Sequence record: PX645697.1 | Reading direction: 5' to 3' (one strand) | DNA length: 64,000 nucleotides | Source: a phage | Shown here: piece after piece, positions 1,406-53,543 of the stretch | How the letters are laid out: every line of letters begins with the position of its first letter | How positions within the stretch are numbered: position 1 is the stretch's first letter | Made by a program: the position numbers and the translations under genes | The notes under the pieces: generated by a model | Told to the model about the DNA's origin: nothing | The model's input: only the letters and a program-made list of their open reading frames with translations | The model's database searches: none

Positions 1406-1624
1406 ATGAAAATGATGAAACAAGCTGTATATGGTTTAGTTTGTTTAGGTGCAGGAGTCGTGGTATCTACTGCAATCCCTGTAAGCGCAGTTCATCCATT
1501 AGTTACAGCACCTGCTCCAGTAGAGAAACTTAGTTCTCAATGTAAGCAGCGAACCATTCAAAATAATCTAGTTGTTATTTGTCCTGATGCTGAATCTAAC
1601 GCTCTGAGAAAGATACTACCTTAA
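1406..1624 (+). CDS. small membrane protein, holin candidate (72 aa)
   Basis: Single N-terminal hydrophobic segment (VYGLVCLGAGVVVSTAIPVSA), located immediately upstream of the lysozyme gene; no homology evidence. Confidence 0.3.
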   Translation: MKMMKQAVYGLVCLGAGVVVSTAIPVSAVHPLVTAPAPVEKLSSQCKQRTIQNNLVVICPDAESNALRKILP

Positions 1625-1653: not shown

Positions 1654-2145
1654 ATGGATAACGCCGCATTGCCACCTGTACAACTAAACTTAAGCCCAGC
1701 TGGAATGGAATTCATCATGAAGCATGAGGGTATGAGAACCAAGGCTTATAAAGATTCCGCAGGTATCTGGACTATATGTGTAGGGGCTACGCGCGATATG
1801 AATGGTTATCCGGTTAGACAAGGATTAACGTATTCTATAGAGGATTGTCTAGCTCTGCTAGATAGAGACACACAAGACTCTGTTCGTGCTACTCAGAAGA
1901 ACATAAAGGTTCCTTTACTAGTTCATGAGTTTGATGCACTCACTTCTTTCAACTTCAATGTTGGCAGTGGGGCTTTGAGCACATCTAAGTTAAGGAAGGT
2001 AATCAATGGAGATGTTAAGGGGGATGTTTATTCCGAATTTCTTCGTTGGGATAAAATAACGGTCAAGGGAGAGAAGCAGAGAAGTCAGGGTCTTCATAAT
2101 AGAAGAGTTGCAGAAGCTAATCTTTACACCGAAGGTAAATATTAA
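1654..2145 (+). CDS. endolysin, GH24 lysozyme (T4/lambda lysozyme family)
   Basis: FIMKHEGMRTKAYKDSAGIWTICVG ... FDALTSFNFNVG ... GLHNRRVAEANLY matches catalytic Glu region and core of phage muramidases; SD AAAGGAGG upstream. Confidence 0.8.
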   Translation: MDNAALPPVQLNLSPAGMEFIMKHEGMRTKAYKDSAGIWTICVGATRDMNGYPVRQGLTYSIEDCLALLDRDTQDSVRATQKNIKVPLLVHEFDALTSFNFNVGSGALSTSKLRKVINGDVKGDVYSEFLRWDKITVKGEKQRSQGLHNRRVAEANLYTEGKY

Positions 2146-31171: not shown

Positions 31172-31855
31172 TTAACTCTCCAAAGTTTTCTTCAGAGCTG
31201 CCCACGAGATTGGGTAGATCTTAGCCATCTCTTCGTCTACGGATTTAGCAAACACTCGAACTTCATATTGAGCGTGAGATGAGAGTCGCTGACGACACAG
31301 CTCAAACCAGCCATACAAAGAACCAGTCCACACCCACTCAGTGATCATCCCCTGAGGAAGAACAAATCGAGCTTGCTCTGGTGCAATAAATTCAATCAAC
31401 TTGTCATATGCTGCTAGAGAATCTTCATATGCATCGTTAATCAGCATTAATGCTTCATCTCGCTCTCCGTCGATGAGTTGAATCCCTGAACCTGCATGGA
31501 GGTCCGCAGGTCTCGCAAAAATCTCTTTAGGGATGAAGACTTCAACTGCTCCATCTTTATACCGCCGGGACATTTCGTTCCACGAGAATCCAACCTGATG
31601 CTTGCCCAACTGTCTCGCAATTGCGATAGGTGCTTTGCATCGGAAACTGACTTGTGGGTGTCGGAATGGAGTAACATGCTTCTCTCTTGCGAGGAAATTG
31701 ATGAGACGTTCATCACGTTCATTTAAATCACCTTCACGGGTTACACCAAAGGAAACTCGAGCTGCGTTTACTACAGTTTTATCCGAGCCTAAAAACTCTA
31801 CCAGTTCTGCTTTAAGCTGATCATTCATTACTTTTTCTCTCCATCCATGAAGCAA
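31172..31855 (-). CDS. thyX: flavin-dependent thymidylate synthase (ThyX)
   Basis: ThyX-type motif ARVSFG...FRHPQVSF...QRLSSHAQYEVR. Confidence 0.7.
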   Translation of the reverse strand: MLHGWREKVMNDQLKAELVEFLGSDKTVVNAARVSFGVTREGDLNERDERLINFLAREKHVTPFRHPQVSFRCKAPIAIARQLGKHQVGFSWNEMSRRYKDGAVEVFIPKEIFARPADLHAGSGIQLIDGERDEALMLINDAYEDSLAAYDKLIEFIAPEQARFVLPQGMITEWVWTGSLYGWFELCRQRLSSHAQYEVRVFAKSVDEEMAKIYPISWAALKKTLES

Positions 31856-32273
31856 GTTTTCTAACTTCCTCTATCGTTATATCACTTTTTAACCTATTTA
31901 CTCTTCTTGACAAAAAGGTCACATTCCCTTGAACGTACCCTTTGTCTGGAATAAATCTGTCAAGCTCAGCTAAGTCATCAGAACCTTTTTCACCATCTAT
32001 CTTTATAGGCGTATCTAATACCGGACAGAATCCAGTCCAAATAGACTCTAGATACTCAGGAGTTAAATCAAAAGGTACGTTATCCCTTTTTGCTTTTATT
32101 TTAGTTCTGACATTCTTTAATTTAAAAGGTTGTGTCCTTTTATATTTTAGATATCTAGCTCTTTGACTTTCGTTGGCGCAAGAATAACAATAAGGCCGTA
32201 ACCTACCAGACCTATCATTACGCACAGGAAATTGATCTATGTCCAAATCCTTTTCACAGGAATTACAGATCAT
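31821..32273 (-). CDS. zinc-finger protein, possibly degenerate HNH-like nuclease
   Basis: N-terminal CNSC...CYSC; C-terminal IPDKGYVQGNVTFLSRRVNRLK. Confidence 0.3.
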   Translation of the reverse strand: MICNSCEKDLDIDQFPVRNDRSGRLRPYCYSCANESQRARYLKYKRTQPFKLKNVRTKIKAKRDNVPFDLTPEYLESIWTGFCPVLDTPIKIDGEKGSDDLAELDRFIPDKGYVQGNVTFLSRRVNRLKSDITIEEVRKLASWMERKSNE

Positions 32274-32338: not shown

Positions 32339-32539
32339 TTAATATTCTTTTACACAATAAACCACTAAGGTTCCTTGATCTGTTAATATTGACTTATGTA
32401 AGCTGACATTACTATAAAACTTTGGAGCTATCTTAAGGGCTTTCTTAAAACGACGAGCTTCTTTACGAGTAGCAAAGTGCTCTGTTACAGGAACTTTGTC
32501 GTTGTGTAGATAGTAAACTACTGTCCAATATTTTTTCAT
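32339..32539 (-). CDS. small protein, member of KEARR-KK paralog family
   Basis: MKKYW...TRKEARRFKK shared with four ORFs at 34.4-35.5 kb. Confidence 0.4.
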   Translation of the reverse strand: MKKYWTVVYYLHNDKVPVTEHFATRKEARRFKKALKIAPKFYSNVSLHKSILTDQGTLVVYCVKEY

Positions 32540-32814: not shown

Positions 32815-33004
32815 TCTATTCCTTGTTAATAAACAGGTTGATATGACGCTGGGTAGCAGGAACAACAATAAAAGATTTATACTGACCTTTTGCTAGGTCA
32901 TGAGCAATCTTCTTTGTCTGACCAAGACCCATCACACAGCCACTAACGATAATGGCATGTGCTTGTAATTCTTCAGGTAGGTTTAGTTTCACTCTTTGGA
33001 TTCC

Positions 33005-33190
33005 TTATAGCATACAAAGAATAATAACAAGAGGTAGTGTTATAGCAAAATGTACCAGAACAACACTACCTAGCTTGATAGCTTTAACATCCTCTTCTGC
33101 TGGGTTTTCTTTAATTGCTAAATTTCGAGCTTTATATATAACAGTACCAACTATTAACGACCACACGGCCCACACAATCAGTGAAATCAT
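33005..33190 (-). CDS. small two-TM membrane protein
   Basis: Track ORF; MISLIVWAVWSLIVGTVIY... paralogous to the adjacent untracked ORF. Confidence 0.45.
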   Translation of the reverse strand: MISLIVWAVWSLIVGTVIYKARNLAIKENPAEEDVKAIKLGSVVLVHFAITLPLVIILCML

Positions 33191-33199
33191 ATCAAATCC

Positions 33200-33379
33200 T
33201 TATGCAGTCAGGAGGTGAAGCAGGAATGGGATAACAACAGCTACGATAACCATGATAGTTGATGCTGTTTGAATCTCACCTTTCTTATCAGGGGTTTCTT
33301 CAATAAGCTTACCAGAAGCCCAATAAATACCACCACCAATAAAGATAGCCCAAATACCCCATACGATTGCTGATAACAT
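33200..33379 (-). CDS. small two-TM membrane protein, 59 aa (not in track), paralog of 33005..33190
   Basis: Hand translation MLSAIVWGIWAIFIGGGIYWASGKLIEETPDKKGEIQTASTIMVIVAVVIPFLLHLLTA. Confidence 0.45.
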   Translation of the reverse strand: MLSAIVWGIWAIFIGGGIYWASGKLIEETPDKKGEIQTASTIMVIVAVVIPFLLHLLTA

Positions 33380-33440
33380 ATATCTATATCCTTATAAATA
33401 AGTTCGCCCCACCTCGGGTTAGGAGACAGGGCGGAGGTTT

Positions 33441-34040
33441 TTAGTAAGACACATCACCACTTGAGTGGGACATGTTGCTCTTGACAAAGTAGCAATACTT
33501 GCCAAGACCTTCATTAATTTCTTGAAGCATACTCTGATCAACTGGATAAGTGACTAAATCACCATCAAACTCATCCATCTTCTCAATAATACACAACAAG
33601 GTCATGCACATATCAGAGAGCATTCCATCCATGTCTAGATCAGCATTACCCTCTGAGAACCAAGCATGAGAGAGGTAGTTAGCTGCTGTAGCGTCCACTT
33701 TAACACAGTGGTAACGCATACGTTCAGCAATACGATCTCCTACCTGTCGTGCGTAATCTTCCAGCTCGTCAAACATACCATGAACACCCTGAAATCCTGC
33801 ACCAGAGACGTTCCAGTGGTAGTTTTTAGCTTTAATATGCAAGAGTTCCATGTTAGCTTGTAAGCAGCTTAGGATGTGTTCTAGGTTGTTTCCGCTAATC
33901 ATGCCCTGCATAGTTTCAAGGCGAGAGATTGAAAGCTCAGATCGGTCTAACATGTTATATTCTGCACGACCGATTTCAGGTAAATCAAAGACATTCTTAT
34001 GCATTTGGGTTATCTCCATCAAGTTCAACTGAATTAGCAA
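33441..34040 (-). CDS. Dps-like / ferritin-like protein
   Basis: KNYHWNVSGAGFQGVHGMFDE...DRIAERMRY matches the Dps ferroxidase-region pattern HWN..G..F..VH.M.D....AER. Confidence 0.5.
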   Translation of the reverse strand: MLIQLNLMEITQMHKNVFDLPEIGRAEYNMLDRSELSISRLETMQGMISGNNLEHILSCLQANMELLHIKAKNYHWNVSGAGFQGVHGMFDELEDYARQVGDRIAERMRYHCVKVDATAANYLSHAWFSEGNADLDMDGMLSDMCMTLLCIIEKMDEFDGDLVTYPVDQSMLQEINEGLGKYCYFVKSNMSHSSGDVSY

Positions 34041-34364: not shown

Positions 34365-34373
34365 ATATACATT
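34365..34373 (-). promoter_or_regulatory. AAATGTATA variant of the recurrent motif
   Basis: One mismatch to TAATGTATA, 35-40 nt upstream of ATG 34326. Confidence 0.3.
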
Positions 34374-34398
34374 TGAGAGTGATCATATCTACTACCAA

Positions 34399-34608
34399 TC
34401 AGTAGTAAATTACTTTAGACATAAAAGAACCAGTGTTAGGGTCTTCATACCAGCGATGTATGTCAGCGCTTTTTACTATTGTGCCCAGAGTCTTCAACTG
34501 TTTCTTAGCAATACGAGCCTCTTTGCGAGTGTCAAACAATTTGATGCTATCTTTTCTCATATGTTGCTCAAGATCCCAAACAACATGAATAGCCCACATC
34601 TTTTTCAT
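34399..34608 (-). CDS. small protein, KEARR-KK paralog family
   Basis: MKKMW...TRKEARIAKK...VIYY. Confidence 0.45.
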   Translation of the reverse strand: MKKMWAIHVVWDLEQHMRKDSIKLFDTRKEARIAKKQLKTLGTIVKSADIHRWYEDPNTGSFMSKVIYY

Positions 34609-34823
34609 TAGTAATGTACCTTTCCGCTGATATAAATACGGCCTGAGGTATACTCATAGCCCTTGAGAATCTTAATAGAGATAAGATATCCAGTGTGTAA
34701 TTCACTGAACGATTTCTTAAGCCTACGTGCATCTTCTCGTGTTTTCTGGTAGGCCATGGTCACCCCCCCACTTGTCCACTCTGTCTTAACTAACCAAATT
34801 CTTTTCATAAGACCTGCCCTCAT
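34608..34823 (-). CDS. small protein, KEARR-KK paralog family
   Basis: ...TREDARRLKK...KVHY. Confidence 0.45.
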   Translation of the reverse strand: MRAGLMKRIWLVKTEWTSGGVTMAYQKTREDARRLKKSFSELHTGYLISIKILKGYEYTSGRIYISGKVHY

Positions 34824-35035
34824 TAGTAGTACACCTTGCTTCCAGCCATGAACGCCCCTGTCGAGCTTATCATGGCTTTGCTGATAGTAACTTTCTTACA
34901 CCGTAAACATACCTTCCAGTTCTTTTTACAGATTCGAGCTTCTTGTCGAGTGTTACAAAAAATAGCCGAAGATATTTCTTGGGTGTTGTTATCATAAACA
35001 CGAACACACCACTTTTTCATTGTTCCAAACTCCAC
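34823..35035 (-). CDS. small protein, KEARR-KK paralog family
   Basis: ...TRQEARICKK...KVYY. Confidence 0.45.
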   Translation of the reverse strand: MEFGTMKKWCVRVYDNNTQEISSAIFCNTRQEARICKKNWKVCLRCKKVTISKAMISSTGAFMAGSKVYY

Positions 35036-35241: not shown

Positions 35242-35490
35242 TCAGTAATATATCTTTTCATTGATAACCAAAGTGTCGTAATTCTCTGTCTGAGAGTGGA
35301 CCGCTTTGTGAATAGTAGCTACTACATCAACAGCATCTTTAAAGCGTCGATAATGGTTTATGGTTACTTTTTTGAGACGTCTAGCCTCCTCTCTTGAGGG
35401 AAGCTGAGTTTTTAGAACAGTGATTTTACCTGTTGAAATCTTGGTAATCACAACTTTCAGTGCCCAACAATCCAGAGCAGCCTTTTTCAT
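35242..35490 (-). CDS. small protein, KEARR-KK paralog family
   Basis: ...SREEARRLKK...KIYY. Confidence 0.45.
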   Translation of the reverse strand: MKKAALDCWALKVVITKISTGKITVLKTQLPSREEARRLKKVTINHYRRFKDAVDVVATIHKAVHSQTENYDTLVINEKIYY

Positions 35491-53255: not shown

Positions 53256-53543
53256 TTACCACTCCTTACCGGTTGTTGTTACAGAACCACCACACCACTG
53301 CGCATCGGATAAGGTTTTAGTCTCCTCATCTACTGCTGCACCATTCAGGCATGAGATACCACTGTAACGCATATCAATTTCACCAGAAGGAACCTTCTCG
53401 CCCTTATGCCAGCGAGATACGCAAACACCTTCCACTGCTACTGCACACCATCCATCAGGACGGCTCTGTACGCAGCCTGTAAGGGCTATGCAGACGATGA
53501 AGATACAGATTAAGGATATTACACCACCCCAACTCATAACCAC
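53256..53543 (-). CDS. lipoprotein candidate
   Basis: Signal-like N-terminus ending in lipobox ALTGC. Confidence 0.4.
   Translation of the reverse strand: MVMSWGGVISLICIFIVCIALTGCVQSRPDGWCAVAVEGVCVSRWHKGEKVPSGEIDMRYSGISCLNGAAVDEETKTLSDAQWCGGSVTTTGKEW

Follow-up and report, generated by a model that had tools for sequence, protein, structure and literature searches.

The Gordonclarkvirinae are prolate podoviruses of the phiEco32 type. Promoters for the gp36 sigma factor have been mapped experimentally upstream of phiEco32 genes 6, 13, 26, 40, 58 and 68 (PMC8948821, PMC4331800); P68 is termed a middle promoter, and its activity in vitro is stimulated ∼3-fold by gp79 (PMC12276001). For phage SU10, the genome paper places the same promoter motif between CDS68 and CDS69, lists CDS66 with the middle genes and gives no homologue of CDS66 in phages 7-11 or GAP52.

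Two kinds of described phage protein are most relevant to the genes considered here. Class II holins and the S21 pinholin are phage-encoded proteins of ∼60–70 residues with two transmembrane (TM) helices. Small inner-membrane proteins that virulent phages make before the late phase, and that have no part in lysis, serve mostly in superinfection exclusion where their function is known, T4 Imm and Sp being examples. T4 Imm, with a mass of 9.3 kDa, is bound to the membrane and blocks genome translocation by attaching to the tape measure protein (bioRxiv 10.64898/2026.03.06.709160).

We have analysed two adjacent small genes, here called B and A, in a 64,000-nucleotide stretch of phage DNA (sequence record PX645697.1), referred to below as the window. 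Around the pair, the window shares 90–95% DNA identity with Escherichia phages of the Gordonclarkvirinae (genera Kuravirus, Nieuwekanaalvirus and Suseptimavirus). Across 24 kb the top DNA matches are WFI101126, MN05 and NJ01, at ∼94–95% identity, and comparison of this 24 kb region gave no identical record. On sequence grounds, the window is that of a Kuravirus-like (phiEco32-type) coliphage.

Paralogy and predicted fold of the pair

Gene B (33200..33379, minus strand) encodes 59 residues that are predicted to form a helical hairpin of two TM helices, and gene A (33005..33190, minus strand) encodes a diverged, 61-residue paralog with the same predicted fold. Both open reading frames are found where the original prediction placed them, their location on the minus strand being an added detail; B, described there as untracked, is an annotated CDS in the records of related phages, as is A. 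Each gene begins with ATG and has an upstream TAAGGA Shine–Dalgarno (SD) sequence. The ratio dN/dS inside each sequence type is ∼0.1–0.3, from which we conclude that B and A are real, constrained genes. They already carry the annotation 'hypothetical protein' in ∼100 public genomes of related phages; new here are their paralogy, the hairpin fold, the existence of three types and an optional copy, the placement in a middle operon, and the rejection of a holin assignment.

The view that the two proteins are tandem paralogs, first taken from inspection of their translations, is borne out. BLASTP with compositional adjustment aligns A and B at 33% identity over 58 residues (E 2e-10), and both match the same family, phrog_9296. 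Their local alignment score is 94, compared with 34 ± 8 for sequences shuffled so that the compositions of TM1, the loop and TM2 were each kept separately, and none of 5000 such shuffles reached 94. At 7.3 standard deviations above segment-preserving shuffles, the similarity is more than a common hydrophobicity.

Both proteins match phrog_9296 over its full length (59/59 profile positions), with E-values of 2.3e-30 for A and 3.6e-34 for B. This is a family of unknown function, and the PHROG matches of the pair are all to families of that kind. B is 100% identical to phiEco32 gp66 (phi32_66; locus L003) and to SU10 CDS66, and A is identical to KBNP1711 gp067. With a full profile match and the same synteny there is no difference between the pair and the gp66 family; the pair is the family itself. 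Its members fall into three discrete types, B1 (the phiEco32 type), B2 (the MLP3/SU7/Bas88 type) and A, with identities of ∼51% between B1 and B2, ∼32–33% between A and B1, and 42–44% between A and B2. Thirteen positions are invariant across the types: Met1, Ser3, Ile5, Trp7, Trp10, Gly15, Tyr19, Glu28, Pro30, Ile36, Ser40, Pro51 and Leu56 in B numbering.

Searches for remote homologues in Pfam (E ≤ 10), NCBIfam and PADLOC, and against the PDB by sequence profile, gave zero matches. Three word-indexed searches of 5.8 billion proteins returned only 19 clusters, all from kuravirus-like phages, and when the profile was run exhaustively against 1.84 billion representatives, only the three types and one frameshifted fragment came back. 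The single extra match in the latter search, the 1106-residue protein P0020, aligns in 10 short matches to profile positions 6–21 and looks like a repetitive hydrophobic artefact. IMG/VR holds five loci of the family, four of them from isolate genomes, and in a fold search of BFVD the family itself is the sole significant match. By these searches phrog_9296 is an orphan family confined to the Gordonclarkvirinae.

The two hydrophobic helices per protein that were originally noted are recovered by hydropathy analysis, by the Hessa scale and as hairpins in AlphaFold2 models, so that the claim stands up to TM prediction. Kyte–Doolittle maxima over 19 residues reach 1.75–2.8 and lie at residue 1 and at residues ∼41–43 in both A and B, and the helices have Hessa-scale insertion energies of −1.4 to +1.0 kcal/mol. 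For TM1 the corresponding values are 1.75–2.1 and −0.5 to +1.0 kcal/mol. The AlphaFold2 models show helices 2–28 and 30–58 in B (pLDDT 93) and 2–28 and 32–60 in A (pLDDT 91). In both, the predicted hairpin is tight and antiparallel, and is broken at the invariant E-x-P sequence.

Neither protein has a soluble domain, and the charged residues all fall within a turn region of ∼20 residues around E-x-P, the last of them being Glu35 in B and Lys39 in A. Lys and Arg are confined to the loop, which has five of them in A, three in B1 and four in B2, and the termini are free of both; the net charge of the B1 loop is −1. By the positive-inside rule, applied to charge counts only, the loop is probably cytoplasmic and both termini periplasmic. 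Some genomes have a single gene and others a tandem pair of paralogs, as is also the case for EmrE/SMR and Fluc-type pairs. A dual-topology pair of the SMR/Fluc type is nevertheless rejected: the K+R bias of A, B1 and B2 points the same way, and since every Lys and Arg sits in the loop in each type, opposite orientations of A and B are not indicated.

The invariant residues of TM1 map to two opposite faces, one with Ser3, Trp7 and Trp10 and the other with Ile5, Gly15 and Tyr19, as judged by alignment and helical-wheel arithmetic. This arrangement suggests an intramolecular interface with TM2 on one side and contact with an external partner on the opposite side. The family alignment contains no conserved cysteine or metal ligand, and ∼18 loop residues are exposed. 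We infer that B and A insert in the inner membrane and act purely through intramembrane helix–helix contacts.

Operon context and variation at the locus

A motif search places the P68 element of the window, AAATGTATA, at 34366..34374 (minus strand), where it fits the tAATGTAtA consensus of the gp36-sigma middle promoter. It lies two genes upstream of B, in front of the gp68 homologue, and the operon that begins there runs gp68, Dps-like gene, B, A, phrog_19504 gene, thioredoxin gene and onwards. The immediate upstream neighbour of B (33441..34040) encodes a Dps/ferritin-like DNA-binding protein; several records label this gene 'integrase', which looks like an annotation error. Downstream of A come the phrog_19504 gene (32816..32992, minus strand; 58 residues, GTG start), the thioredoxin gene, a gene for a phrog_4939 protein, an inserted EndoVII/HNH-like gene, and ThyX. 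In phage E20-1 the CDS at the thioredoxin position (OP293233.1; 1858..2133 of locus L005) is labelled 'holin', another apparent error of annotation.

Because they lie within the P68 middle operon, B and A are expected to be made together with replication and nucleotide-metabolism proteins, well before lysis, the middle class itself being drawn from secondary accounts of phiEco32-like transcription. Mass spectrometry of SU10 detected the products of both flanking genes, the Dps-like protein and thioredoxin; in the SU10 proteomics passages gp66 is not named among the detected products, which is unsurprising for a hydrophobic protein of 59 residues. The distant relatives 7-11, Proteus phage 3H10_20 and GAP52 (Grimontviridae) keep the thioredoxin–gp68–Dps cluster and have no membrane protein nearby. 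We conclude that the hairpins are not obligate partners of the neighbouring enzymes.

The pair is flanked by five paralogs of phrog_4939, a family of unknown function (32339..32539, 34399..34608, 34608..34823, 34823..35035 and 35242..35490, all on the minus strand; 66–82 residues), which share a T-R-(K/Q)-E-A-R...K-K motif and a C-terminal Tyr-Tyr. Paralogy of small genes is thus general in this part of the genome. Between ThyX and a phrog_4939 gene lies an Endonuclease VII/HNH-like open reading frame (31821..32273, minus strand; 150 residues, phrog_3322 and phrog_1035). It is absent from this position in KBNP1711, phiEco32 and Paul, and so probably arrived by insertion of a homing endonuclease; in EP335 and ShigP1 another insertion adjoins ThyX.

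Comparison of the junction sequences at 11 loci reveals a recurrent arrangement. The SD of B, TAAGGA at 33389..33394 (minus strand), lies 9 nucleotides 5' of the ATG and is kept in all relatives examined. The same hexamer at 33197..33202 (minus strand) combines the stop codon TAA of B with the overlapping SD of A, forming a translational-coupling junction; TAAGGA also ends A, and in single-copy phages it links B directly to the thioredoxin gene. After B, the same GCATAAGGA junction is found whether A or the thioredoxin gene comes next, and the stop/SD junctions are apparently the points at which modules have been exchanged. The reading frame of B continues into A across the junction (TAA-GGA-TTT-GAT, 33191..33202, minus strand), and every two-copy locus examined keeps the 9-nucleotide spacer. 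Were the B stop codon read through, a hypothetical fusion with four TM helices would result.

A conserved RNA hairpin with a stem of 11–13 bp (33405..33433, minus strand) occupies the interval between the stop codon of the Dps-like gene and the SD of B, and is followed by a U-rich stretch. Its calculated stability is −18 to −20 kcal/mol in three to four sequence versions, including a wholly different stem at locus L010. The element is terminator-like, but its U-tract is weak in the window. It is probably a partial intrinsic terminator, an attenuator or a transcript-stability element that sets the level of the B/A message.

Comparisons among relatives show which parts of the locus vary. By tblastn the upstream slot is filled in all 98 kuravirus-like records, by a B1-type gene in 74 and a B2-type gene in 24. 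A is present, at ≥80% identity, in 45 of the 98, with a patchy distribution over three genera. The slot is syntenic, between the Dps-like and thioredoxin genes, in phiEco32, Paul, KBNP1711, NJ01, EP335, MLP3, E20-1, ShigP1 and Bas88, and four gene orders are seen within it. B is followed directly by thioredoxin in phiEco32, Paul and ShigP1, by A and then thioredoxin at the metagenomic locus L020, by the phrog_19504 gene and thioredoxin in EP335, MLP3 and E20-1, and by A, the phrog_19504 gene and thioredoxin in the window, NJ01, KBNP1711 and Bas88. The phrog_19504 gene is optional too, and its occurrence does not follow that of A. The A protein found beside B1 in the window is 100% identical to that found beside B2 in KBNP1711 and Bas88, and B1 does not differ between loci that have A and loci that lack it. 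Since A and B1 are unchanged across these pairings, neither co-adaptation of A and B nor rapid diversification is indicated. Within the subfamily B is thus universal, and A an optional cassette that phages acquire or lose at the junction.

Candidate roles of the hairpins

The reading that we favour, tentatively, is that B and A have a non-lytic, protective role in the inner membrane, of the superinfection-exclusion or immunity type; immunity was one of the alternatives in the original prediction. Once lodged in the inner membrane of an infected cell, they would stop the genome-delivery proteins that a second, related phage inserts into the membrane. The principle would be that of T4 Imm and HK97 gp15, exclusion proteins that act at the inner membrane against genome translocation. 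The types B1, B2 and A would then give different or additional specificities, and the optional A might add a second one. We count in favour of this reading the middle-operon position, the translational coupling, the restriction to one lineage, the cassette-like polymorphism and the independence from neighbouring genes. B and A resemble Imm and HK97 gp15 in being small, in lacking an enzymatic domain, in their (predicted) location in the inner membrane and in being expressed ahead of the late phase, here from the P68 middle operon. A periplasmic N-terminus, known for Imm (bioRxiv 10.64898/2026.03.06.709160), is predicted for B and A.

The likeness has its bounds. Imm, an 83-residue protein with four helices in its model, acts on a tape measure protein, whereas B and A are two-helix hairpins without detectable sequence similarity to it; Pfam, PHROG and NCBIfam show no homology of the pair to Imm or to annotated exclusion families. 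To our knowledge, podoviruses such as the kuraviruses have no tape measure protein, and the analogy of target is therefore loose. Further points stand against exclusion: B is universal and highly conserved within each type, which fits a housekeeping role at least as well; there is no sign of co-adaptation; the topology is read from charge counts; and the B1 loop has a net charge of −1.

Nearly as likely is a host-directed role, in which the hairpins would engage a protein of the host inner membrane, either inhibiting it or giving protection from it, as part of host takeover or anti-defence in the replication phase. Possible targets include a transporter, a protease, a division or envelope-synthesis factor, or a membrane-embedded abortive-infection effector. 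The anatomy and timing of the proteins suit this possibility as they do exclusion, the two conserved faces of TM1 suggest an external partner, and the universality of B fits a constant host target. The Gordonclarkvirinae are also reported to be highly resistant to the defence systems tested (PMC11990801). However, the pair has no homology to known anti-defence or host-takeover proteins and gives no PADLOC-related signal, and it is not obvious why a host target that is conserved should call for three discrete types.

A more ambitious, and unlikely, proposal is that the hairpins constitute a new class of membrane 'plug' proteins, with B1, B2 and A as interchangeable cassettes, each closing off a different membrane-inserting pore or channel. 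If that target were the channel through which competing kuraviruses deliver their genomes, the result would be modular exclusion in a virulent podovirus. In the most exotic form, the hairpin would be a mimic of the ATP-synthase c subunit that lacks the carboxylate and poisons the host ring complex.

The neighbourhood of the pair could instead point inwards, to a membrane anchor or organiser for the replication and nucleotide-metabolism machinery, or to a redox partner of the Dps-like protein and thioredoxin. B is universal in the subfamily, and the pair appears to share a transcript, as well as translational coupling, with the genes for the Dps-like protein, thioredoxin and ThyX. Such a role is nonetheless improbable: the ∼18 exposed residues of the loop include no conserved cysteine or metal ligand, the Grimontviridae keep the enzyme cluster without a hairpin beside it, and A and the 58-residue neighbour come and go independently.

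A role in lysis, whether as a class II holin, as a pinholin/antiholin pair or as a regulator of the timing of a late class III-type holin, is a poor prospect. Lysis-timing regulators may be encoded outside the lysis cassette, as is T4 rI, and B and A do have the small size and two TM domains of a class II holin (∼60–80 residues), with a Gly-Gly-Gly run in TM1 of B. Among the class II holin and pinholin traits that can be tested, however, the two-TM architecture is the only one that the pair has in common with these proteins. A hydrophilic, charged C-terminal tail is absent, with no Asp, Glu, Lys or Arg after residue 35 in B or residue 39 in A, and both proteins end inside TM2. There is no dual start of the M-K/R-x-M kind; the N-termini read M-L-S-A-I and M-I-S-L-I, each with one Met and no Lys or Arg. 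The pair has no match to a holin family in Pfam (E ≤ 10), PHROGs or NCBIfam, and it differs from class II holins also in its middle rather than late expression.

The comparison with the S21 pinholin is no closer. Both TM helices of the pair are strongly hydrophobic, TM1 is not SAR-like, TM2 has no glycine zipper, and there is no sequence match. Nor would a pinholin suffice, because the endolysin of this phage has no N-terminal hydrophobic segment. A specific holin–antiholin pair is disfavoured by the finding that A is identical beside B alleles that are only 51% alike.

The position of the pair leads to the same conclusion. The endolysin gene (1654..2145, plus strand), which encodes a 163-residue protein of the soluble lysozyme type, lies ∼31 kb away and on the opposite strand, in agreement with the original remark that the pair sits far from the lysozyme gene; B and A are downstream of the middle promoter P68 and not in a late lysis cassette. 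Directly upstream of the endolysin gene is a dedicated holin candidate (1406..1624, plus strand), a 72-residue protein with one TM helix that matches phrog_11161 ('holin'). Its homologue in phage Paul is annotated 'holin class III' (Center for Phage Technology), and published descriptions of kuraviruses agree with this late holin–endolysin arrangement. In favour of a lysis role for the pair it may be said that the late 'holin' is itself a prediction. The candidate begins M-K-M-M-K, which resembles a dual start, and has two cysteines in its C-terminal part. The proposed resemblance to class II holins or pinholin/antiholin pairs thus fails on tail, dual start, family match, cassette and timing, and B and A are almost certainly not the holin of this phage.

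Spanin genes have been reported for phiEco32-like phages (PMC6139136). We did not locate any in the window, where the PHROG labels of the candidate membrane open reading frames are uninformative; the annotation of the early region of Paul lists none. The product of one frame (53256..53537, minus strand; 93 residues, phrog_4281, of unknown function) is hydrophobic in its N-terminal segment and carries an L-T-G-C lipobox; it may be an early-region lipoprotein, for example an o-spanin or a Cor/Llp-like exclusion protein.

Holes or depolarisation during the expression of replication genes would be self-defeating, and the membrane-depolarising role once offered as an alternative is disfavoured on this account. 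The pair does share a hairpin geometry with subunit c of F-type ATP synthases: nearly all Foldseek matches in the PDB are c subunits (best TM-score 0.81, rmsd 1.3 Å over 52 residues), the predicted topology is likewise N-out/C-out with a polar, proline-containing loop, and the spacing between the loop and TM2 prolines is 21 residues both in B (Pro30, Pro51) and in Escherichia coli subunit c (Pro43, Pro64). Kinship with subunit c is rejected, however, the similarity being that of a generic hairpin: the Foldseek E-values are 0.3 or worse and c subunits dominate the helical hairpins of the PDB, hhalign gives a probability of 0.6%, Pfam ATP-synt_C (PF00137) is not matched at E ≤ 10, and B and A have no TM2 carboxylate, with Val or Ile at the equivalent of Asp61, and an E-N/T-P loop in place of RQP. 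That the hairpins are mimics that insert into or cap host c-rings, or general ion-leak or depolarising peptides, is barely credible, since depolarisation in mid-infection would trigger premature lysis.

Implications for kuravirus-like phages

Kuravirus-like phages are common coliphages that have a broad host range, resist many defences and are candidates for therapy, yet a function is known for only a minority of their small genes. B and A make up an ordinary, uncharacterised accessory gene family, small phage membrane proteins being a familiar kind. For annotation, gp66 and its optional paralog can now be described as (predicted) middle-phase inner-membrane hairpins and not as lysis proteins. 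The pair also offers compact, easily cloned candidates for superinfection exclusion or for action on a host membrane target. Should the exclusion reading be true, it would matter for the design of phage cocktails, in that related kuraviruses could exclude one another.
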